Assembly (NCBI GenBank): GCA_964016885.1
Contig: OZ024742.1
Location: forward strand, 82,584,001-82,648,000
Direction: 5' to 3'
DNA length: 64,000 nucleotides
Source of the DNA: Eledone cirrhosa
Lineage: Eukaryota
Positions 2,675 through 55,500 of the stretch are shown one piece after another. Positions within the stretch are counted from its first letter, which is position 1. Each line of letters begins with the position of its first letter. A program made the position numbers and the translations under genes. The notes under the pieces are model-generated. The model made no database searches. It had not been told where the DNA came from and was given only the letters and a program-made list of their open reading frames with translations.

Positions 2675-3154
2675 ATGATTCGGGAAATTTTCACGCACTT
2701 GTATATTCAATTAACATCTGAATTCGGATGTCCTCAGTTGAGATATTGGTTTTGCCTGATTAACATCTCAGATGAGCTGATTGTAGCTGGAGTCAGGTTT
2801 ATAACATTAATTTGGAACCTGAGCCACCCATCTGTGAAACGTTCTTAACTGAGCATTTATCAATGAAAACCTAAATGTGAAATCTCGTTTCACGTTTGAT
2901 GTCAACATGCATGGACCTGTTATTTTTATCTAAAGACACTTTATTCCAATTCCACCCAGCCCGTCCCCTCAATCGATCTTATTTTCTCATTTTTTATTCT
3001 AATGAAGGACTAACGTCCCAAACGTTAATACCCTCTTCCTGCTATATCAAGTGTTAACCTAATATATCCCTTCCATATACTGTACGGATTGTGTTGTTAT
3101 TTTTGTTTACCTTTTACATACACACACACACATACAAACACTCACATATATATA

Positions 3155-3257
<103 letters not shown>

Positions 3258-5513
3258 AGTAGAAAGTTTATTGTCACCATTAGAGTTGAATATCTCAATG
3301 AAAAGATAAATACCAATTCAGAGAAGTATTTAATTGTAATCCCTCTGATGTTGATTTTGGCATAAGTTAAACTATGTGTATAGTATATATATTCAAACAT
3401 ACATACACACACGTATAAATATAAATATATATCAAAGAGAGTGAGAGAGACGTGTAGAGAGATGATATTCAATGAAACAGAAGCTTGTTAAAAGTCACTG
3501 AAATTATCTGCAAGTCACATGCGTCATGCACACTTACCTACATTATCTATTCACAATTTAACAAGAGAAAACCTATAAACATAGTTACATAAAAATGTTC
3601 ACACATATACCCAGCCCCGTGTAAAAACCTAGAAATATACATATGTGTTCGTCGGTGTATTTGTGTATCAGTTTACGATAACACGTATCAATTTCCCCCT
3701 CTTTTCCTTTGTTTCGCGCTCTGTACATATATATTTGAAGTCTTCGTAGTATTTGATCTTGACAAAAACTCTAACACCGGCGGCAGTTTCACTCGATATG
3801 TTGCATAATATTAAAACGAAATGTTAGTATCTCATCAAAAGAAGATGAAAGCATACAGCTACGTGTATATGATGTCGCTATAATTTCGCATGCTGTGGAT
3901 TCGGAATTCATAAATCTTTCACATCCTATTCTTCTTTCTCTCCTTCGTAAAGAGAAAAAAGGTCTGTTTGCCGATGTTACGTTCAGAGAAATACAATAAT
4001 CTTCCCCTCATGCTTCAATTTGTAATTTCGAGCCATTGATCTCTTAGAAATTCTGTATGTTCATAATATAATTAACATTAATAAGTTAGTGGGAGCTAGA
4101 ATCTGGAAAGCCTTTGGGAAATGCATTATATTAGTTGCTTTTCGTTCTTTGTGTTTCTGTTTAAATCCCATCCAAGTCCTATTTGCATTGTTATCGCTAA
4201 GAAGTAATATTGTCAACTCTCTCTTGAATGAATTGCTCCACATTGTCTACATTCCAATGATTGTAATAAGTAAAATCTTCAGAAATTTTAATTCTCCTAC
4301 ATATAAACAGAAATAGAAACGGGCTTCAATGACCCCTTTAGATTTATATGAGTCTATTATTTGTCAGAAAGCGTGTTTTAGTTATTGAAATTACCAAAAT
4401 ATTGGTATTTGTATTGTCATAGTTTCTGATAGGACAAAAGTCAAATTTCAGTCTAAAGGTTATATTAATTCAGCAGATCAAATACGATTATGTTAACATT
4501 TGGTTTGATGGGAGAATAATAAAGGAATTCTATAGTCAGCTTAGCTACCAGCACAGTTATCTACGTCACCACCTTCATATAGTTAAGATAAGCTGGTCGA
4601 AGGATTTATGCTTCTTGATTATGTGCTAGCAGACATCTGAGCGTATATTTTTCCTCATGGGTATGTTAGATAAACATCAAAACTATTATATAGGGACAAG
4701 TGTTATCTTCCCTGTGCAGTTTCGAAAGAATTAGGAAAAGTTTTAATAAAGTTAGTTCGCACAGAATTTTGAAAAAATATATGTATTTCTACAATAATAA
4801 CAGACTTTTGATAAATATATATTCGACAAGAGACACTCCAGTTCATGGAATAGATTTATTTAACTGATTCATAGTCGATGAAATTCAAAGTATATTTTCC
4901 TGCCATTTCAAGATAAAACGTGAACGCATGTAAATGAAATGACTTTACGCTGGACAATGAAGATTGTATTAGTCATTAGATTGCTGGTTTACATATGTAT
5001 AAATATATCTCAAACAAATAGTGTTCACCTCCTGATTCATGAAATATGAGCTCGTTCGCAAGTAAGAAATGGAAACGCCCTAGAATACAACATAAAATAA
5101 TCACTTATAGTGACATATTTAACCTTTCTGCTGTCGATGTATAAATGTTGCAATAATCCACTGTCCTTTCCCCAAAATATATGAGATCGGTAACCATAAT
5201 AGAATTCTTTATATATCATTAGAGGCTGGCTTTCGTTTTTAAATTAACGATAATTTATTCATTGGTTCATGCTTACTAAATGATAGTGCGTCAGGTTAGT
5301 AGGCAAGGTAAGAGCTTGCTTCAAATGAACTCACTTTCTGTACTCTTATATTCTTTTTCTCCCTTATCTCTCCTTATATGTAAACTTTTTCCTATGTTAT
5401 TTATTTTCATTATTCCCCCCTACTTTCTACCTTACCCTTTACATACACACCTTTTTATTTATAGATATTTATTTCTGTGTGTATGTATGTGTTGTGTATA
5501 TGTGTATATAATG

Positions 5514-5544
<31 letters not shown>

Positions 5545-5690
5545 ACATATATATGTGTATATAATTATATATATATGTATATATATATGTGTGTGTGTGT
5601 GTTTATGTGTGTGTGTATTTTTATTAAGGTGTGACGTAACTTTTTGTATATATGTGTGTCTGTATATTTGTGTGTATGTGTGTATATGTG

Positions 5691-5771
<81 letters not shown>

Positions 5772-5927
5772 CGATATGTCTCATATGAAATAATACAGCC
5801 AATTTTCCACACAATACATTTAGTTAGCACCCCGAACGTTTAATTAGGAATATACTCACTTATTTCCTAATGTTTGTTGAGTGAGTTGGAATTTGGCCGG
5901 AGTATCGCAAAAAAGCTTTCTCCGATA

Positions 5928-5981
<54 letters not shown>

Positions 5982-6027
5982 GCCGTCGAAACGGCTTAAG
6001 CTCTGCCGTCGGGATCATACTTTTTCT

Positions 6028-6111
<84 letters not shown>

Positions 6112-6438
6112 CAACTGGATAATTATAAGTTACCTCCCCTATATTGTCTCACAATTAAAAAAATTTAAAAATTAGCACTTAACTATAAACACCCACAATT
6201 TCTAATCTCTCGAGAAGTTACTTCCCCTGAAACCACCCTCTAATTAGTAAGGTAAATATCCCCTTTGGCAGCCATCTTGTTACCCATAGGCAGATCTCAC
6301 ACAATGCAGCCTCGACAGATGAATACTGCTTGATTATGGCTGACAACTGATGCAACCAAGACACCATAGTAAAATCCAATATATGGAACATTATATTATG
6401 TAACATTATCCCATTATTTTAATTTATATTCCTTTGAT

Positions 6439-6558
6439 GTTCCGATGAGCCGCTCTGTTTTTTAAATATGTTAATTATTTTCAACCGAACCAGATCAATT
6501 ATGATATATAGTCATCTGATCCAGAAATTTTATATGGAGTAGCGAAACAATTGTAAAC
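6439..6558 (+). ncRNA. Type I HHR-like motif in 5' pLTR (core cCgatga, long stem II insert, palindromic stem III)
   Basis: gtt-ccgatga-gccgctc...ggagtagc-gaaa-caattg-ta-aac. Confidence 0.6.
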
Positions 6559-6587
6559 GGACATTATTATTATTAAAAATATTATAA

Positions 6588-6785
6588 GGGCGGTGAATTG
6601 ACAGTGTCGGTAGAGGGTCGGACACCATGCTTTGACGCATAGAGTTACGGCCCTTGCCATTCTGAGTTCAAATCCCGCAAAGGTTAACTTTGCCTTTCAT
6701 CCTTACGGGGTCGATAAAATAAAGTACCAGTAATGTACTGGGTAATTGCTGGCCTTGTGCGAAAAGTAGAAACAATTATTATTAT
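6588..6785 (+). mobile_element. SINE inserted in the (ATT)n tract of the 5' pLTR of PLE1
   Basis: Full SINE unit; absent from the 3' pLTR copy at ~10208-10237. Confidence 0.9.
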
Positions 6786-7110
6786 TCTCTACATTCCTTA
6801 CATCAAACTAAATTATGTTGACAATCTTTTAATAATGTCTTCCTTGTGAAATGTGTGGTCTTGTTTTGCTTAACTAATGAATATCTCCAGCTCTGCGCAC
6901 CTAACTTCTGCATGAACCCAGCCACCTAGCTGCTTTGTACTGCATATTGCACATTGAGCACATGCCTTTACGCTTTGGCTTCTAACTAAACCCCCAATCT
7001 CTCCTCTCATATCTCCTCTACTATCTCCATCTCTCTCTTTAAGATTGGTTACTCTTGAACTGTGTATACTTGAGCTCCCGTAGTTGAGCTATTTACTGTT
7101 AGAAGTCACC

Positions 7111-9707
7111 ATGCTGAGCAAACAGGAACTCAGTATCTCACTTAAGTCCATACCTATCCCGGACAGAAAGACATACCTCAAACTCCTAATACATGTCAAC
7201 TCCTTCATCCGAAGAATGAGATGGAAAGCGTACCACTTTGACCGTGCGGTTGCTGCTGACACCGGAAGTACAGCAAATGGATTTACCACATGCAAGAACC
7301 CTCCACACAACATCCTGCTGGACCCTTTTGAGAAAGATCTATTCAACTTCGTCGGGAGCATTAAGTTCCAATCGCATTATAGACAAAAGAGTAACTTCCT
7401 CACTACATCAGCAACAACTATAAAAAAATTTAAAGATAGCAACCTCTTACACGTTATGTCTGACAAAACTAAACATCTATACACCATGACTCCTGAAACT
7501 TACAACTCTTTCCTTCTTAAAGAACTCAATAAAAACTATAAAAAAACTACACCCTCCAGTGTAAACGTACTTAACCGAAAAGCCCAGGGTTTGGTTAAGG
7601 ACTTACATCTGGATAGATTTACCCACCCTTATGTACCAACAACCCCAAGGTTCTCTCTCAAGGATCACAAGCCAAACTTCATAGAGAACCCATCCATTAG
7701 ACGCATAAGCCCAACCGCATCTGATCTGGGCCGCATCAGTAAGAACATCCTTGATAGCATAATCCCTGGGCTACGGGATGATACCACCTACAAGTTGTGG
7801 TCGAACACCGGCCAAGTCATCAGATGGTTCTCCGATCTAAGATCCAAGCAATCTATGAGGTTCATCCAATTTGACATAGACAGCTATTACGCGTCAATAA
7901 CCCCGGAACTGCTCAGCAAATCATTAGCCCTAGCCACCACCAACTCGGACATAACCAATAATGAGATTAACATCATACTTATGGCTAGGCAGACTATCAT
8001 TGAATTCAACGGAGCACTCTGGACTAGAAAAGATAGAACAGACAACTTTGACATTAAGATGGGCTCAAGTGACGCCGCGCAAATCACCGATTTAGTTGGG
8101 ATTTACCTATTACGTAACATCAGAGCCGAAATCCAACCCATGCAAGGCGGAATATACAGGGACGACGCACTATTTCCGGTCGACAATTGCACTAATCGGG
8201 GAATCGATTTTCTAAAGAAACAATTACATAGATTCTTCAAAAATAACGGTCTCTCTATCACCATCGAGCCGAACCATAAAGTAGTAAACTTCCTAGACAT
8301 CACCCTGGATCTCAACAATAACCTTTATAACCCTTACCATAAACCAGGTGAAATACTCACTTATATTAGCACACACTCTAACCACCCACCGGCAGTCATC
8401 AGAGCAGTAATCAAATATATCTTCTATAGGATCTCAATGCTATCAGCAAATGAGGAGATAATTATAAACCACGCACAATATTATAATAAGGCTCTCTCTG
8501 AATCTGGTTATAAACAATCAATTTATTACATACCTAAATGCTATAACACAGCAATTCACCATAATAAACTTAACACTAGAACTAGAAATACCTTAGCATA
8601 TAGCCAGATTCGCTGGAATTTTAGCAGTAACAGCACCTATACAGGGGACTTTAATGGTGGCAGCGGCCTGCTCCCCACTCCAAGTAGCAAACTAAAAATC
8701 AACCCTAGAATAGGAATGAGAAATGGGATGACAAATAACAAATCCGCAGGTAATAATACCCCTAGGTGGCTGGGTTCATGCAGAAGTTAGGTGCGCAGAG
8801 CTGGAAATATTCATTAGTTAAGCAAAATAAGACCACAAATTTCACAAGGAAGACATTATTAAAAGATTGTCAACATAATTTAGAACCCCTAGAAGGAATA
8901 GACCTAGAAATATCACCTGGCTCAACCCCCCCCCCCCATTCTCATCTAATCTAGCCACTAATATCCCCAAACGCTTCTTCTCTATCCTATCCAAACACTT
9001 CCATCCCAAAACCATAGATATTACAAACTCTTTAATAAAAATAACATTAAATCTCATTCTCCACAACACCTAAACTAGCTAGCCACATCGCGGTCAGTAA
9101 TCATCATAAGCTAAGACAGTATAACTCCCACACCGCGGTACCACCACCCCTATCAAATACACCACGCCACTACACCAATAATTACTCTAGTAGCACACCT
9201 CCCTCATCTAATCCTTCTAGCACAAACCTACCGCTTAGGTTAAACAACCCTACTCTCACTAACCGCAGAAGCAACTGCAACTGCCGTTACCCCAATGCAT
9301 GCACATTAAATGGACACTGCCTGACACCCAACATAGTCTATAGGTGCACGGTTGAGACTGCTTCGAATACCAGCTCTTATATCGGGTCTACCTCTAACTC
9401 TTTTAAGGTACGCTATAACGCGCACTCTTTTTCCTTCCGAGACCCTAGCAACAGATGTTCGACATCACTAGCTAGACTCATTAAAAACCTTAAATTAAAC
9501 AACGTTCAACACTCACTAAAATGGGATATCGTGGCTAGGGCCCAACCGTTCAATGGACGAAGTAAATCTTGTGATCTCTGTATTACGGAAGCATATTACA
9601 TAACTCTATCACGACCTCTACCGATTAGCGATAGAACGGAGGTAACCATTAGCTGTCAACATCGAAGGGCTAATTCCTTCGCCAATAGAATTTTTGACCC
9701 GACTTAG
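7111..9707 (+). pseudogene. PLE reverse transcriptase + GIY-YIG endonuclease, disrupted
   Basis: SDKT, FSLKDHK, FIQFDIDSYYASI, MGSSDAAQITDLVG, GIYRDDAL, VNFLDITLDL, SNHPP in ORF 7084-8790; downstream frames give [54 protein letters not shown], stop near 9707. Confidence 0.9.
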
Positions 9708-10083
9708 TCATGTAGCCCCATTTTTACTTGTAGCTAATAAGTTAAATTGCTATGAACAACTCGATAATTATAAGTTTCCTCCCCTACATTGTCTCTCAAT
9801 TAAAAGAATTTAAAAATTAGCACTAAACTATAAAAACCCATAATTTCTAATCTCTCGAGAAGTTAATACCCCAGAAAACACCTTCTAATTAGTAAAGTAA
9901 ATATGCCCTTTGGCAGCCATTTTGATACCCATAGGCAGATCTCACACAATGCAGCCTCGACAAATGAATACTGCTTGATTATGGCTGACAACTGATGCAA
10001 TCAAGACAACATAGTAAAAACCAATATATGGAACATTATATTATGTAACATTATCCCATTATTTTAATTTATATTCCTTTGAA

Positions 10084-10203
10084 GTTCAGATGAGCCACTC
10101 TATTTTTAAAATATGTTAATTAGTTTCAACTGAACCAGATCAATTATGATATATAGTCATCTGATCCAGAAATATCATATGGAGTAGCGAAACAATTGTA
10201 AAC
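10084..10203 (+). ncRNA. Type I HHR-like motif in 3' pLTR (core cAgatga)
   Basis: gtt-cagatga-gccactc...ggagtagc-gaaa-caattg-ta-aac. Confidence 0.6.
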
Positions 10204-10331
10204 GGACATTATTATTATTAATATTATTATTATTATACTCTACATTACTTACATCAAACTAAAATATGTTGACAATCTCTTAATAATGTCCACCTTGTGA
10301 AAGTTGTGGTCTTGTTTTGCTTAACTAATGA

Positions 10332-16436: not shown

Positions 16437-19178
<2,742 letters not shown>

Positions 19179-19205: not shown

Positions 19206-19287
19206 GCTCTGCTGATGAACGAAATCCAACCGTGACCATCCCCACTGAAAGTTTTCGTGAAATAGTCTTTTCAAGACTATACAGAGC
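19206..19287 (+). ncRNA. Canonical type I hammerhead ribozyme
   Basis: gctctg-ctgatga-acgaaa...tttcgt-gaaa-tagtctt-ttc-aagacta-ta-cagagc; all three stems fully paired; AUA triplet. Confidence 0.85.
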
Positions 19288-19753: not shown

Positions 19754-20367
19754 TATATATATTCATATATGTGTGTGTGTGTTATGTGTGTGTGTGTGTG
19801 GATGAGTGTGTATGTGTGGGTGTATTGTGTTTTCAAAATATCATTGAATCATATTTCAAGAGACATACATGGAAATCCACGTTATCACCTATTGGCGTTC
19901 GTATTGACGTTGTTTCTTTCCATGATTAAGTTATGTACTTCATGTTTTACTTTTATGTTTCTATTTATTTCTAATATAAAGCTTGTAGTGTAATATTTGA
20001 TGACATAACTTAGGAATGGTAATTCCTAAAGTGAAAAGCAGATATGATTTGTTCTATCTAAATATCCATGAACTTCAGTTCGATTACAAAGAAACGTAAT
20101 ATTAATATCTCGCACGAGAATACTACACTCGTTTATATTTGATTTATCATCGTTATGTTGAATATAACAAATATGTCGTCTTTCACATTTTGACAAGAGA
20201 CAGGAATACAAGATAGGAATGTAATGTCTACTGGGAAAAAATGTCAGAAAAAGGAGTTACTTCAATAGAAATGTTTTTTTTTTAAATTTACATAATATTA
20301 GTAACACAATTTAAAGTTTTGCATTCGTTTGCCTGTCTCCATCTGTCTACCGAATATACCGAATATA

Positions 20368-22012
20368 CCGTGGTATTTTCTTCGTGGTTATAAGAGGCTT
20401 AGCTCTGTTTCTCGACCGTTATATCGCGTGACTGTCTCCCCCTCCGCCTTTTGGGATTCTTTGTCACGTCGTGTAGACGCGTTCTTGAGACTAGTAAAAT
20501 GAGGTATCCTCTTGATAAGTCGGCAGACCTCGCAAGGACTCTATATCTTTGATATATTGTTTTTGTTTATGCCACGAAACTACGTAGTCGAGGAATTTAG
20601 GAACAGTTTAGGTATGATACATTTTATTACTAATTATATCTAAATGTTTCTTCTCTCTTCATAATGTATTTTTAACTCTGATACTGGTTCAGTCTGGTTC
20701 AAACTGAATTAGTCTGTCCCAGTCATTCATTGAGCAACATCGGTGAAGTTGGCACCCTTAACTCACAGTTGGGTGCGGATGCATTCATGTATATATGTGT
20801 GTGTCCGCATGTATCTGTGTGTTTCTAAATATATTAATAACTCCCTCTGGTCGAGCAATCTTTGAAGTGTGGGGACAACTGGAAAGCTTCCATTACTCAT
20901 ACTTCTCGCCTTCTTCACTACCTCTTCTACGGCCTCGATATGAATACCCCCTCCGCCCCCGTGGTATTTTCTTCGTGGTTATAAGAGGCTTAGCTCTGTT
21001 TCTCGACCGTTATATCGCGTGACTGTCTCCCCCTCCGCCTTTTGGGATTCTTTCTCACGTCGTGTAGACGCGTTCTTGAGACTAGTAAAATGAGGTATCC
21101 TCTTGATAAGTCGGCAGACCTCGCAAGGACTCTATATCTTTGATATATTGTTTTTGTTTATGCCACGAAACTACGTAGTCGAGGAATTTAGGAACAGTTT
21201 AGGTATGATACATTTTATTACTAATTATATCTAAATGTTTCTTCTCTCTTCATAATGTATTTTTAACTCTGATACTGGTTCAGTCTGGTTCAAACTGAAT
21301 TAGTCTGTCCCAGTCATTCATTGAGCAACATCGGTGAAGTTGGCACCCTTAACTCACAGTTGGGTGCGGATGCATTCATGTATATATGTGTGTGTCCGCA
21401 TGTATCTGTGTGTTTCTAAATATATTAATAACTCCCTCTGGTCGAGCAATCTTTGAAGTGTGGGGACAACTGGAAAGCTTCCATTACTCATACTTCTCGC
21501 CTTCTTCACTACCTCTTCTACGGCCTCGATATGAATACCCCCTCCGCCTCCGTGGTATTTTCTTCGTGGTTATAAGAGGCTTAGCTCTGTTTCTCGACCG
21601 TTATATCGCGTGACTGTCTCCCCCTCCGCCTTTTGGGATTCTTTCTCACGTCGTGTAGACGCGTTCTTGAGACTAGTAAAATGAGGTATCCTCTTGATAA
21701 GTCGGCAGACCTCGCAAGGACTCTATATCTTTGATATATTGTTTTTGTTTATGCCACGAAACTACGTAGTCGAGGAATTTAGGAACAGTTTAGGTATGAT
21801 ACATTTTATTACTAATTATATCTAAATGTTTCTTCTCTCTTCATAATGTATTTTTAACTCTGATACTGGTTCAGTCTGGTTCAAACTGAATTAGTCTGTC
21901 CCAGTCATTCATTGAGCAACATCGGTGAAGTTGGCACCCTTAACTCACAGTTGGGTGCGGATGCATTCATGTATATATGTGTGTGTCCGCATGTATCTGT
22001 GTGTTTCTAAAT
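20368..22012 (+). repeat. Tandem repeat, 591-bp unit, ~2.8 copies, one HHR per unit (retrozyme-like)
   Basis: Units start at ~20368, 20959 and 21550; near-identical; ends in (TA)n. Confidence 0.95.
20507..20594 (+). ncRNA. Type I HHR, U3:A8 variant (also 21098-21185 and 21689-21776)
   Basis: tcctc-ttgataa-gtcggca...tgccac-gaaa-ctacgtag-tc-gagga; palindromic stem III, GUC triplet. Confidence 0.75.
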
Positions 22013-22035
22013 ATATATATATATATATGTATATA

Positions 22036-22093
<58 letters not shown>

Positions 22094-39790: not shown

Positions 39791-40282
39791 TATATATATA
39801 TACATATATATATATACGAATGTATATATACATATATGAATGTATATATAGTGTATTTTGCAATACACTGTATGCTTAATTAAAAGCATTTTGAAGAACA
39901 TACGCTATTGTTTTAAAGTGGTGACAGTGGCACTTACTTAGATTTCCAGCAAACAGGAGAGATAGGCTGACAGAGCTCTGTTTCGTACTTGTTGGTACTT
40001 ATCAAACCTCATTACTCTCGTTGTTTGCTGAAAATTATGTGTATTGGATTCTTATAGAATTCCAGTAATAATCAGGAACTGATTATACTGAGCGGTCGCC
40101 GTTCGAGCAGAAATTGAAAATTAGAATTGGTGCTCTGAAATAGCGATATATATATGAATGTATATATAGTGTATTTTGTAAAACACTGTATGCTTAATTA
40201 AAAGCATTATGAAGACCATACGCTATTGTTTTAAAGTAGTGACAGTGTCACTTACTTAAATTTTCATCAAACAGAGGGGATA

Positions 40283-40327
40283 AGCTGACAGAGCTCTGTT
40301 TCGTACTTGTTGGTACTTATCAAAGCT
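40283..40327 (-). ncRNA. Type I HHR, U3:A8 variant (second copy 39965-40009)
   Basis: Minus strand agct-ttgataa-gtac-caacaa-gtac-gaaa-cagagctctg-tc-agct. Confidence 0.85.
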
Positions 40328-40561
40328 CACTACTCTGCCTGTTTGATGAAAATTATGTGTGTTGGATTCTTATAGAATTCCAGTAATAATCAGGAACTGA
40401 TTATACATAGCAAACAGGGGAGATAAGCTATTTCAGAGCCCCAATTCTAATTTTCAATTTTTGCTGGACCGGCGACCACTCTGTATAATCAGTTCCTGGT
40501 TATTACTGGAATTCTATAAGGATCTAACACACATAATGTTCAGCAAACAGGGAGAGTAGTG

Positions 40562-40606
40562 AGCTTTGATAAGTACGAACAAGTACGAAACAGAGCTCTG
40601 TCAGCT
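40562..40606 (+). ncRNA. Type I HHR, U3:A8 variant
   Basis: agct-ttgataa-gtac-gaacaa-gtac-gaaa-cagagctctg-tc-agct. Confidence 0.85.
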
Positions 40607-40813
40607 TATCTCCCATGTTTGCGTGGGAGGGAGAGTACTATTAGATGTGGTAGGGCTGTGGTGGTTAGATGTGGTGCGTGTGGACGCGGTGGCCAGGACA
40701 GCAGTGGGGTTAGATTCAATCGGAGTGGAACGCGTATGTAAAAGTATTATTATTGTCACAGCTGCAGTTTTTACAGCAGACAGTGCCCAAAAGTAGTCGG
40801 GAATATGTTCCTC

Positions 40814-41739: not shown

Positions 41740-44700
41740 ATGGCGTCATTCAAAAAATATGTTTCTCTACCATGTCTCCACAGAAAAATTACTCCTTCAG
41801 CAAGGTATCCTTCTTAACCTTGTCTTTCTTCACCCAGCTGTCAGCTCGGAGTCTCGCTTTCCCATTCGTCTTCTTCATCGTCATATAGTGAAAGTCAGGC
41901 AAATGCCATTTCATTCTCTTCATCAAGCGGCGGTTGAAAAGCGGCTGCTGCTGCTGATGCATTTGACAACAAAGGACGTAGCAGCATCATCGGCAGTATT
42001 AACAATAACACCTGTGTTAGCAGTAGCAGCAGCAGCAACACCAACAACTCCGTTTGTAGCAATAGCAAAAACAACAGCACCAACAACAAGAACAGTAGCA
42101 GCAGTAGCGGCGGCAACAATGATGCCACTGAAAAAGGGACCATCTCTTTTGCAAAGGTAGCTCGCAACGTAGAAATATTCATGATCACAGAGGAGCAGAT
42201 GGCGGTCGCAAGACACATGGTAACCAGAACAGAAATTTCAGTGTCCTTGAAACCACCAACCGACTTCCTGGAAGGACAAGAGAGACGCAAATTGTCATAC
42301 CGCATGATTGCCACGAAATAGCGTCATGTGTAGAGAGCCTTGGAGGCCCAAATCCAGAAGGCCTAAAGTGCTTCAACTGTGGATCGAAGTCTCACCTCAG
42401 GGCCATTTGCCCACACAAAATAACAAAGGTGAAGGTCCCCCTCCTTCTAACGCCAGAACCGTTGCCCTCAGAAACAGAGCAGTCAGCGAAAAAGTCGGGA
42501 GCTTCTATAGAGAGTAGGAAGACAACGTCCGTGGCACCCACACCAAAGCGATGGACAACAAAAACAACGAACATGGAGTATGAAGCGGCTGAGGAATAAA
42601 AAAACGGTTGTCAACAAAAAGAACAAACGCAAAAACACAACAGCTGCTCCCTCCAAGAGCGAAGGCAAAGAAAGAAGAGACTTTCAGCAACACCACCACC
42701 ATCACCATCACCCCACCTAAAAAGTACACAGCCAAAAATATCACACACAAAGGATTAGTAAAACATATAAAACAACACACAGACATTAACGACTCAAATT
42801 ACTACACCACACCAACGCAGTTGGAGATTTCAGGGGATCACTCTCCAAAAGAATATATACCGATATCATCTTGGAGACACCCACACGATCAAGGTAAGTG
42901 ATCCTTTCTATCTTACCCCGTTTCGTCATCCAGCATGGCCGTACTTAGAATACGCAGTATAAACGTACGTGTCTGGGGTCATCTTGGAAGCAGGGTCACC
43001 TGCAGAACGACCTCAGGTCACTAAACATAGATTTGGTGGCCATCAGCGAGACGAGAATCTCCGAAGCACGAGCCTTCGCACCGACCTTCGGCGGCTACGA
43101 TGTATAAGCATCTTCCAGTCCTCCGGGATCGGGTGGAGGAGTTGTGCTTTTACGGAGAGGTTTGGATCTCGCCACACGGGCCATCTTCCTGGACCCAGAA
43201 AGTAAGTCGGTGGTGCTGGACGTGACCGGCAGCGAAGGCAATGCTTTCAGACTAGTAGCCGTCTACGCCCCAACAGGGGCAGGACGACCAGATTTCTTCA
43301 GACGTCTAGAGACCTTTCTTGGACCTCCCACTCTCTAGTGTTAGTAGGCGACTGGAACAGTATCTTAGATGCACGCTGGCTTTATGTGGGGTTAGTGGAC
43401 AGAGGAGGAGGGTGAAAAAGCCTCAACCACCTGCTCAGCCGTTTTGAACAGCCTGGCAGATATTGACTGGATTATCCGAATGTGCCAATGTGGACATGGG
43501 CAAACCGCATCGGGTCATCCAGATCGTATTTAGATAGAGTATTATGTATGGAAATACATAAGGCTAGTGTAGCTTGTCCATAATTTAAAGTAGTCAACTA
43601 CATGGGCCGCAAATTTGTGATCTGTGAAGTTGATTTAGATAGACTCCATAGGCAAGTGGCCGGCTATTGGAAGCTGAACGCGTCGTTCCCGGCGCGCAAA
43701 GCTTACACAGACCGGATTAGCGAATTAGTTGGCGGACCAAATCGGAGTATGGACTTCGGCGCATACCTCGACGGACTGCCGCAGCTCTCGACGACCACAG
43801 CGCAGTGCTGGGAAAAGACTATAATAGCAGGTGAAATAAGGGAAGCGATGTCTGACTGCAGGAGGGATAAATCGCTAGGTTTTGATGGTCTGCCCTACGA
43901 GCTTTATGCGTATATGCCAGAATCGTTCGGCGACCTCTTGGCAGATGTCTACTGCAAATGGCAGCAGAACGGGAGCATTTCCCGTTTTGTGAGCCGGGGT
44001 CAGTGGTGCTGCTGAGAAAAGACCCGAACAAGGGGGACGCTATAGACAACTTCAGGCCCATAACTCTGCTAAACGCAGATTTCAAGATATGGCCAGGGTG
44101 TTAGCAAAGAGATTGGCGCATGTCGTCGGTGGTCTGGTGTGAGATGCGCAGATATGCACCATTCTGGACAGATCCATCCACGACAACCTCCATCTCATGC
44201 GATACATCATAGAGAGAGTGGTGCTCTCATCAACTTGGACCAATCTAAAGCATTTGATAGGTTCGACTATCGGTACCGGGCTGTGGTTTTCGAGGCGGCC
44301 GGCTTCCGGCTCGTTTTAGGTGCTGGATGACTGCGATGCACAGCAACATCTGCTCGAGGTGAGGCTGAATTGTCACCTGTCGCAGCCGTTGATCATCATA
44401 CGCTCGGTCCGCCATGGTTGTCCCCTCTCATCCCTCTTGTACGTACTGACACTCGAGCCATTACTGTACAAATTGGAGACCATGATGGTGGAGGGGGCTC
44501 GCGAAACGGGATGCGGGAGATCCATGTTGGTTCACGCCGATGTCGTCACCGTGGTAGTGTCGAGCATCAAACACGCCCAGGTGCTCGGCACCGCTCTCAA
44601 GGAGCAAAGAAAAAACAGTAAAAGTCGGTGGACTTGCAACTCGGAACCTGGAGAGGAAAGTCCAAGCAGTCCGACAGCATCGTGGGATGCCGGACCGAAC

Positions 44701-45933
44701 TACAGGTTAAATTGCTCGGGGTCTGGTTCGGTCCGGGCCTCCAGATTGAGAAAAAATGGAGCGAGGTGACGAGCAGGGTGGCTTCTCTCACCCAGAAATG
44801 GGCCGAGAGGAGGCTGTCTCTGAAATGTCCGGGTAAGGTGGCAAATGCGTACATCGCGTCTGTCATCTGCTACCGCCTGGCCGTCGTACCTTGCCCCACC
44901 CAACTCTCACCAAAATGGAGCGTCTACTCTTTCGCTTTTCGTGGAAAGGACGTGCTCCCATGGTCAGACGATCCTTCTGCTGTCAGCACCTGTTGCGTGG
45001 AGGACTGGGCATGCCGTGGTTGATGATGCGCAAACATGCGCTGAGGCTGCGACATATCTGGTGCTTCCTTGACGGTGAACAGGTGTCGTCGCCGTTTGGC
45101 GGACACGCTTTTCCCGAGCTCGTCTCGTTGACGGAGCTGCAGTTCTGGATCACGGAAAGACCGAGGGATAGCGCTTAAAAGCTGGAATGTCTCCAAGCGC
45201 TAACCGCACTCTACCAGCTGGGCACTGATATCGGTGGAACATCCAGCTCGAGCCTGTCCGAGATGCGCGCAGGACGACGAAACCGTCCTGCACGCACTCC
45301 TTCAGTGCCCGAGGATTGCTGACTTGTGGAGCTATGTCGAACAGTTGCTGTCGCGTGTAGGACGGATCCGGTTATCGACTGAGTCCATTGTTCAGATAGC
45401 CCCGCCATCCTCCTTTAAAGAGGAGGAAGGGCAGGCAGCTTTCATCTTCCTGTTAGCCATGGCAAAAGAGATTGTGTGGTAGACAAGGTTGAAAGGGTTA
45501 AAGACGGACACTTTCCTCTCCGGCCAATCCCTGATTAACTTTTTCAAGTTTCACCTGAAGAGGAGAATCAGTGTTGAGAGGCAAGTGCTGTCTTCTAGTA
45601 AGTTTGTTGAAAGTGGCGAGTCTGGTCCGAGTGAACGGTCCCGCTCTTAGTATGCGCCTGTAGACTGAGGCGTGGGAAAATTGAGAGAGAGAGTTTGCCC
45701 TGGTGGTCAGGGTGGCCGTGGTCTTTTGTGAGGTTTTCGCCACGAGTGATCCCCGGAGGCTTCCCCCGTTTGGGGGAATTTTTGTTGTTTGAAATGTTTT
45801 AATTTGTTTTTACGCGTTTCTGTCTTGTTATAACATTTTTACATGGCCAAAATCCACTTTGTATCGTCCTGTGCCGTCTGTAATGTTTTTCTTCATGTTA
45901 GCCCTTGTGGCCAATAAAGAAACCATTATTATT
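41740..45933 (+). mobile_element. Near full-length decayed Tx1/L1-type LINE (ORF1 with CCHC knuckle; ORF2 APE-RT-zinc finger)
   Basis: CFNCGSKSHLRAIC at 42369-42410; ORF2 from 42935 SINVR, LVAVYAP, LVGDWNSILD, SYLDRV, GFDGLPYELY, NFRPITLLNADFKI, NLDQSKAFDR, SVRHGCPLSSLLYVLTLEPL, KLLGVWF, CPRC..ETVLHALLQC; tail aataaagaaacc(att)3. Confidence 0.9.
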
Positions 45934-50680: not shown

Positions 50681-51371
50681 TTCATGATTACACCTCGTAT
50701 GAAAGCGTGATACTAAATTGGAGGTGATATAAGGGGATAATACATATATTTCAAGGTTTATTAATAATTTACTATTGAAATAGTACAAATTATAGGCTCA
50801 CTTAAACATAACATCTCCCCTCCTACAGAATTTTACATTGGAAAATACTAATCCTAACGTAAGTAAAACCATTGATAAACAATATAAGTGCGAATTCCTG
50901 AAAGATAACCAACTGAAGGCGTAAAGCGAAATCTGCGGTTGGAGTAGGTTTCTAGGGAGAAATAGTATGACTTGGTGGTGGAGCAGTGAAGTGGAGGAGA
51001 AAAAATAAGGCCAAATGTCAGTCATGGAAAGAATGGCAGAATGGAGGAAGTAGTGAGCACTAATGGGATTCTTGTAGAGAAATTATGTGACAGATATACA
51101 TTGCAAGAAGGGAAGTAAAGAATAAGAAATTTATTATAATATATATATATATATATATACATTATGAAGAGAGAAGAAACATTTAGATATAATTAGTAAT
51201 AAAATGTATCATACCTAAATATATGGAAAGTTATATTTAAATTGTTGGGTTACAACTAGTAAATATTTATAACTGATATAAAAGCACTCGACAAGTATTT
51301 GGAGTATATTTACAAGTCGAAGTTGTTACGGTATGTCGAATCTATTTATATATAAAACTGTTTATATTGTA

Positions 51372-52859: not shown

Positions 52860-55500
<2,641 letters not shown>

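Follow-up and report, generated by a model that had tools for sequence, protein, structure and literature searches.

On the plus strand of the window (that is, the whole 64-kb stretch of DNA that was analysed), a tandem array with a period of 591 bp runs from 20368 to 22016, comprising 1,649 bases or 2.79 units. Its 3′ end is uncertain by 4 bases (22012 is equally valid), because the ATAT of the unit merges there into a (TA)n tract. The initial annotation had described 591-bp units at 20368..22012 that differ at only two sites, with predicted ribozyme cuts after 20589, 21180 and 21771, and this description is borne out: the period match covers 20368-22016, exactly two inter-unit differences are present (20463, G/C, and 20958, C/T), and the cut positions agree, delimiting two complete predicted cut-to-cut monomers of 591 nt on the plus strand (20590..21180 and 21181..21771). 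The second monomer serves as the reference, unit positions being counted from 21181. On this scale, the array is a single-armed insertion that is 5′-truncated at unit position 370 and ends at unit position 245. On its 5′ side it adjoins unique sequence, with a 9-nt direct duplication of the flank at the junction (20349..20366, plus strand) and no (TA)n, while its 3′ end lies against a (TA)n tract (22011..22090) that we take to be the target. A contig of run X2 that carries the unique left flank (19900-20367) ends exactly at the insertion point, a weak hint that the insertion could be present on one allele only.

The array had also been considered devoid of any credible coding ORF, and indeed it holds none of at least 120 aa, there are stops in all six frames of the unit, and the longest stretch of the unit that reads through without a stop, as seen by eye, spans about 71 codons and lies on the minus strand. 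A scan of the unit found no clear promoter. Folded as a circle, monomer 2 reaches −174 kcal/mol (z about −6 against 60 shuffles), and the minus strand reaches −132.

As previously claimed, a type I hammerhead fold with a U3:A8 core is present in each of the three positions expected, at 20507..20594, 21098..21185 and 21689..21776 (plus strand), just around the predicted cuts. Stem I is TCCTC/GAGGA, the core consists of TTGATAA and GAAA, stem II (GT(C)GGCA/TGCCAC) closes a long hairpin, and the palindrome ACTACGTAGT makes up stem III. In computed folds of the monomer, the catalytic structure (−21.5 kcal/mol) lies 1.1 above the minimum (−22.6), with pair probabilities of 0.87 for stem II, 0.43 for stem I and 0.07 for stem III. 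For the 8-10-nt palindrome of stem III, a self-duplex of −12.9 kcal/mol is computed, and dimeric cleavage between neighbouring hammerheads, as predicted from this palindrome, is plausible. At gathering scores, Rfam gave no match across the 64-kb window, and a pattern scan of the unit found no hammerhead core on the minus strand. That the fold is beyond chance follows from an older sister subfamily, 74% identical overall, in which identity at the stem and palindrome positions left free by the search pattern is complete (26 of 26), compared with 75.7% at other positions (naive p about 7e-4). The longest two stretches without a difference between the unit and this subfamily coincide with the two halves of the hammerhead, and stem I of the subfamily can be extended to 7 pairs. 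The conservation of unit positions 569-4 in young copies was left out of the evidence, as it is fixed by the search pattern. At one locus of the family, L036, the core A before stem III is altered in all 4 passes around the unit; this locus (3054-5041) is a two-armed insertion, and the change could come from the editing of an already closed circle.

Other ribozyme-like and repeated elements lie in the same window. At 39828-40621 lies a two-armed family that repeats every 318 bp and carries compact U3:A8 hammerheads, whose cores are found at 40005 and 40323 on the minus strand and at 40566 on the plus strand. It is probably the first U3:A8 family of the initial annotation, to which the 591-bp family was said to be unrelated. 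If so, the statement holds, the best local score between the two being 26, with microsatellite matches only. Hammerhead-like motifs with a C3:G8 core occur at 19206-19285 and about 32757 on the plus strand and at about 12821 on the minus strand; the first of these is 1.1 kb upstream of the array, right after a (TA)n tract. Additionally, broken frames at 43584-45023 (plus strand), for which Pfam gave no match, resemble by eye a LINE reverse transcriptase.

The array is one insertion of a young, dispersed, non-coding family with copies at thousands of genomic sites. For a 27-nt half of the hammerhead, the 3.0-Gb genome yields 7,047 exact matches, against 0 for the reversed control, and the genome search for other arrays that the initial annotation had proposed found dispersed multimers at many loci with distinct junctions. 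Eighty loci, with 123 arms in all, were studied in two sets of 40. The first consists of the 40 best-matching loci, this array included, and is consequently biased to copies close to it, while the second consists of the first 40 new loci of 47 taken from places along contig C1, one exact hammerhead half being required. Matches below 85% identity were dropped, as was one duplicated copy in L071 (where, at 2775-6628, an entire two-armed insertion is duplicated locally, about 2.55 kb apart), and L067 and L074 were dropped from the count of private variants. The older sister subfamily turned up in a search for unit junctions, with 118 pattern matches; its end analysis covers 24 loci, nine overlapping or duplicate loci of 30 having been dropped. 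A low-stringency DNA search with the unit gave mainly microsatellites and older copies among the matches listed.

None of the public runs listed as holding the unit is an RNA run, a result without bearing on expression. In contigs of a public run, loose (TA)n ends of the family are found at 20669 and 20834, and no contig of the listed runs spans the array; the raw reads of run X22 gave 5 partial, low-identity matches to the unit. The unit also occurs in one to three low-depth contigs each of four runs labelled as other organisms (X1, X3, X6 and X9), X1 and X3 holding one contig of 620-621 bases each with 3-5 differences from the unit; either horizontal transfer or the carry-over of so abundant a repeat might account for these contigs. 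An assembly artefact or a single local duplication is hardly credible here: copies are scattered over the genome with distinct junctions and private variants, an older subfamily exists, and the same (TA)n ends are recovered in the public-run contigs.

The 3′ ends of the arms are strikingly restricted. Sixty-two of the 123 fall at unit positions 76-82 (the short end) and 57 at 245-253 (the long end; 55 at 245-247, plus two at 251 and 253), leaving 4 elsewhere. Both fixed ends run into (TA)n, while the 5′ ends are scattered round the unit. In the array, the short end corresponds to 20665..20671 (again at 21256-21262 and 21847-21853) and the long end to 20834..20836 (again at 21425-21427), 22016 being the long end used by this insertion; on the plus strand, these would be the first and second start sites of reverse transcription. 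A second insertion of the same family in the window, 63 bp on the minus strand (51157..51219; unit 18-80, 100% identical), ends at the short site against (TA)n. Thus, the expectation that arrays would show permuted start points stands only for the 5′ ends, the 3′ ends being fixed at two internal sites, neither of which is the ribozyme cut. A random permutation of start points is ruled out by the 119 of 123 arms that end at unit 76-82 or 245-253. As for a motif shared by the short ends, the best score was only 11, and an RCTC downstream of them was seen by eye.

In 42 of the 80 loci the insertion is two-armed, with the 3′ ends of the arms facing outward, and these ends are almost always different: 39 of the 42 pair a short with a long end, while two long ends were seen at 1 locus and an odd end at 2. 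The pairing is found in 21 of 22 two-armed loci of the best-match set and in 18 of 20 along C1. Of the 41 simple two-armed loci, 31 have arms that overlap by 1-5 bases. The older subfamily uses the same two ends, and its 15 two-armed loci comprise 11 short-long pairs, 3 with like ends and 1 other. Among the 38 single-armed loci, 22 have a TA-rich 5′ flank, and a target-site duplication is unreadable inside (TA)n.

Tandem arrays and inverted arms may also arise through processes acting on DNA, such as satellite expansion, extrachromosomal DNA circles or a foldback DNA transposon, in which case the hammerhead would be a passenger. L071 is a plain local duplication of this kind. As an account of how the family spreads, though, DNA-level processes are very improbable given the strand-fixed 3′ ends with variable 5′ ends, the recurrence of the same two-end pattern in retroelements of the Hydra clade, the hairpin shared with these and the excess of A>G changes (see below for all three), and a stable fold that exists only on the plus strand.

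The features expected from insertion by a Penelope-like element are instead all present, including 5′ truncation, partial tandem copies and an inverted, 5′-truncated arm. As Penelope hallmarks, the part of PMC8557442 drawn on here lists partial tandems, an arm that is inverted and truncated, and a tail at one end; it also reports that the Hydra clade inserts in (TA)n. According to the sections of PMC11167929 used, the tail corresponds in length to the interval separating two internal sites at which reverse transcription starts in vitro, both target strands being cut and extended. The short and long ends of the two-armed loci are this “tail” footprint, with about 165 nt between the fixed ends.

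Variation within the loci bears on the template that was copied. Common variants are hardly mixed within loci: at position 436 there are 0 mixed loci against 36.8 expected if units were drawn randomly, at position 122 there is 1 against 25.3, and at position 14 there is 1 against 38.7. Template jumps between different molecules are ruled out by this lack of mixing. Moreover, 14 variants private to one locus fill every pass of the unit (for 7 of these, in both arms), and another 77 that are private remain unspread singletons, so later homogenisation is rare. The junctions between units are also clean, as only 3 genome matches carry extra bases against 7,047 exact ones, and all 3 belong to the older sister subfamily. 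Likewise, 5′ ends do not pile up at the ribozyme cut, with 3 of 123 within 6 nt of it against 2.5 expected. A seamless junction together with the repeated copying of one unit is what a circle gives, and the uniform arrays, clean junctions and absence of a 5′-end pile-up at the cut favour repeated copying of one (predicted circular) RNA unit. The changes that were fixed suggest, in addition, that the template was RNA: A>G accounts for 5 of the 14 private fixed changes against 3 of the 77 singletons (Fisher p 0.002), as RNA editing ahead of copying would give. A strand test of the same changes is weak (5 A>G against 2 T>C, p 0.08). The initial annotation had offered rolling-circle-type reverse transcription of a circular RNA, or tandem pLTR formation, and the dispersed multimers support this proposal, one-unit copying being favoured. 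The two options are compatible rather than rivals, since the copies show both the pLTR/tail footprint and rolling copies of one unit.

Two linear templates have to be weighed against the circle. A cut linear monomer, on which the enzyme jumps from the 5′ end back to the 3′ end, would yield uniform arrays provided that the jump stays on the same molecule, and L034 and L148 do start exactly at the cut. It is improbable nonetheless, because 5′ ends are not enriched at the cut, (TA)5 joined to unit position 1 has only 2 genome matches, and the young family lacks insertions at its junctions. A linear multimer that is transcribed from a donor array, left uncut and handled by the same Penelope machinery, with the hammerhead acting rarely or late, would fit the clean junctions and the lack of a pile-up at the cut equally well, and already uniform donors could give uniform linear transcripts. 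The core change in every pass of L036 agrees with it, as does L038, a mosaic with two long ends for which the template must therefore have been multimeric. It is also in line with the in vitro work of PMC11167929, where, in the portion consulted, unprocessed RNA was the dominant substrate and insertion did not need hammerhead cleavage. Similarly, 8 of 9 frog retrozyme dimers were without cleavage according to the part of bioRxiv 10.64898/2026.07.22.740005 considered. Even so, we regard an uncut multimer as an unlikely usual template. The 14 private variants that fill all passes would need a bottleneck of one unit followed by re-amplification, an internal start on a linear array can only shorten the product, yet arms reach up to 5.15 units with fixed variants, and no in-register multi-unit mosaic common to loci was seen among the 40 best-matching loci. 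Some observations do count against the circle, namely the stem I pair probability and the energy gap of 1.1 kcal/mol given above, the L036 core change, which a strict need for cleavage does not predict, and the 3 like-ended two-armed loci of the older subfamily.

The window itself contains three Hydra-type frames, all broken, in which RWK, DKT, CxCX5C or GIY-YIG-like motifs are recognisable. Pfam gave no family for 12 window ORFs, these frames included, and the frames are assigned to the Hydra clade by their RWK, DKT and CxCX5C motifs, following the excerpted text of PMC8557442. The first is a Hydra-type Penelope copy at 6108-10230 (plus strand), with frames at 7084-8790 and 9051-9707 between 478-bp direct repeats that are 93% identical. 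The others lie at 16584-18477 and 53685-55465 (both plus strand), the latter being a member of a family for which a first look gave 55,946 candidates and which has open frames of 713 aa. A pattern scan, perhaps too strict, found no canonical hammerhead for the 713-aa or 919-aa Hydra families (pLTR of L128/L130; leaders of L195, L204, L206 and L211), and hammerheads are called universal in the Hydra clade in the pages of PMC8557442 that we cite.

The 591-bp unit shares a small hairpin with the leaders of these elements. Five bases beyond the long end, the unit carries ACTC-CCTCTGGTC-GAGC, a 17-nt hairpin of the form RCTC-N9-GAGY (20840..20856, with a second copy at 21431-21447, plus strand) that is common to leaders of Hydra-clade Penelope elements and is a candidate start signal. 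It is the best local match of the unit to the leader of the 713-aa family; 37 of 1000 shuffles reach this score when unanchored, and 0 of 2000 when 40-mers anchored at the long ends are compared. A single match to the pattern RCTC-N8,9-GAGY lies in the unit, and the two strands of the window, 128 kb together, contain 12. First noticed by eye, the hairpin recurs in the leaders of five Hydra families, a sixth leader (L088) having only a looser form, and it directly follows the long end in both families with mapped ends, adjacency having been checked in these 2 of the 5. In the copy at 6108-10230, the leader carries it about 21 nt ahead of the ATG.

Like the retrozyme, the two mapped Hydra families end at two sites: in the 713-aa family, all 51 TA-adjacent ends fall in two clusters about 89 nt apart, and in a family with frames of 863-878 aa, 11 TA-adjacent ends form two clusters about 106 nt apart. 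Of the Hydra forms of the hairpin, that of the latter family is the closest to the one in the unit; among 10 loci of this family, 3 have unbroken frames and 9 a U3:A8 hammerhead. The elements of the family are arranged in the order cut, short end (about +57), long end (+165) and hairpin, an order that matches that of the unit (short end +80, long end +245, hairpin +251). From these similarities, the 863-878-aa family is the likely helper of the retrozyme and only a possible direct parent, as no clear homology extends beyond the hairpin, the hammerhead core and the layout. Outside the hairpin (a region of 17-25 nt) and the hammerhead core, the unit has no clear homology to any Hydra leader compared. 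Pattern searches, with part of the families sampled, found 0 matches with the hairpin of the unit directly upstream of a Hydra start, and tblastn with the Hydra frames of the window on 79 loci found many neighbours, none of them fused to the unit in pLTR fashion.

Taken together, these observations make it probable that a Hydra-clade Penelope protein copies a non-LTR retrozyme from a predicted circular 591-nt RNA into (TA)n. In this model, the array would be transcribed on the plus strand, adjacent hammerheads would likely pair through their palindromic stem III so that 591-nt monomers are excised, and a host ligase would close these monomers into circles. The Hydra protein would likely bind near the shared hairpin and nick both strands of a (TA)n tract, after which each of the two DNA ends would serve as a primer on one and the same RNA, at about unit 80 and about unit 245 respectively. 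Each reverse transcriptase would go round the circle for a variable distance, and the two cDNAs would join through 1-5 matching bases, producing a two-armed insertion with its tails outward. Alternatively, one arm might be joined to the opposite side of the target, as could have happened at 20368-22016. It should be noted that the short-long pairing also occurs in autonomous Hydra copies; it points to Penelope machinery and one RNA molecule, and is no proof of a circle. More tentatively, it may be that Hydra-clade proteins recognise a 16-17-nt RCTC-loop-GAGY hairpin as an RNA start signal, priming both strands of a nicked (TA)n target on one circular RNA at two sites, and that the retrozyme hijacks this signal from the 863-878-aa family, a more specific proposal that we consider less likely than not. 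If true, any RNA circle with the hairpin and two AT-rich sites could enter (TA)n as a two-armed rolling-circle copy.

The 591-bp family is likely a non-LTR retrozyme that behaves like a non-autonomous Penelope element. It has the tandem repeats, the type I hammerhead in each unit, the absence of coding sequence and of an LTR, and the many dispersed copies that characterise retrozymes; as the unit lacks an ORF for a reverse transcriptase that carries a GIY-YIG endonuclease at its C terminus, it is not an autonomous Hydra element. A plant LTR retrozyme, with a type III hammerhead in two LTRs and a 4-bp target-site duplication, is ruled out by the type I fold and the tandem units. The metazoan non-LTR retrozymes of PMC7229834, as characterised in the passages available, are likewise GC-poor non-coding tandems that lack an LTR, have a single type I hammerhead in each unit and occur in many dispersed copies, and for which movement through circular RNA helped by Penelope-like elements has been proposed, as in the model above. 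In contrast to their description in those passages, the family studied here has a U3:A8 core and a long extension of stem II. Its unit of 591 nt compares with about 170-400 nt in PMC7229834 and up to 972 in bioRxiv 10.64898/2026.07.22.740005, as far as the extracts of both go. In these same extracts, Penelope mobilisation is proposed from co-occurrence and pLTR similarity and the mechanism is left open; nothing is said there of insertions with two arms, of a pair of fixed ends, of (TA)n targets or of a signal common to the retrozyme and a named helper.

The Hydra-clade elements, as presented in the part of PMC8557442 used, share with the 591-bp family the (TA)n target, the hammerhead, 5′ truncation, partial tandems, an inverted 5′-truncated arm and a tail at one end, and, from the comparison made here, the leader hairpin. 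They differ in that the unit has no ORF and no broad pLTR homology to them was found, and the tail is about 165 nt here compared with the 30-40 nt given for the clade in that part of the paper, the Hydra families analysed here having about 89 and 106 nt. The autonomous Poseidon element PAc of the green anole resembles the family in its two internal starts that match genomic ends and in its AT-rich target, as portrayed in the available text of PMC11167929. By contrast, the starts of PAc are adjacent and lie inside the ORF, its hammerhead is dispensable in vitro, and its starts are reported there not to be homologous to the target, while both ends here are AT-rich and run into (TA)n. The minimal U3-A8 hammerheads of Schistosoma Cercyon, following the portion of PMC4209133 examined, have in common with ours the U3-A8 covariation, a short stem I and a design for dimeric cleavage, but are mostly single and have almost no helix III, whereas the family has an 8-10-nt palindrome and a tandem array. 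Finally, Chlamys elements such as MRC1 are also non-autonomous, of Penelope type and inserted as multicopy head-to-tail units, most of them without a canonical hammerhead and with a 3′ end resembling that of autonomous partners, according to the relevant excerpt of PMC8557442. For two-armed retrozyme insertions, their start sites or the Hydra leader hairpin, we found no report in the literature searched, which consisted mainly of openly accessible papers.

In the portions of the literature cited above, the copying of animal retrozymes from circular RNA by Penelope-like proteins has so far been proposed and not demonstrated. The young family described here records the event in thousands of copies, which preserve the start sites, the use of both target strands and the repeated copying of one unit, and the analysis points to a short RNA signal and to a likely helper family whose frames are intact. 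The evidence on how non-LTR retrozymes move is unusually clear here, and the candidate signal and helper are concrete. With an in vitro Penelope assay published, as reported in the text of PMC11167929 on which we draw, the enzyme, the template and the signal become accessible to experiment.
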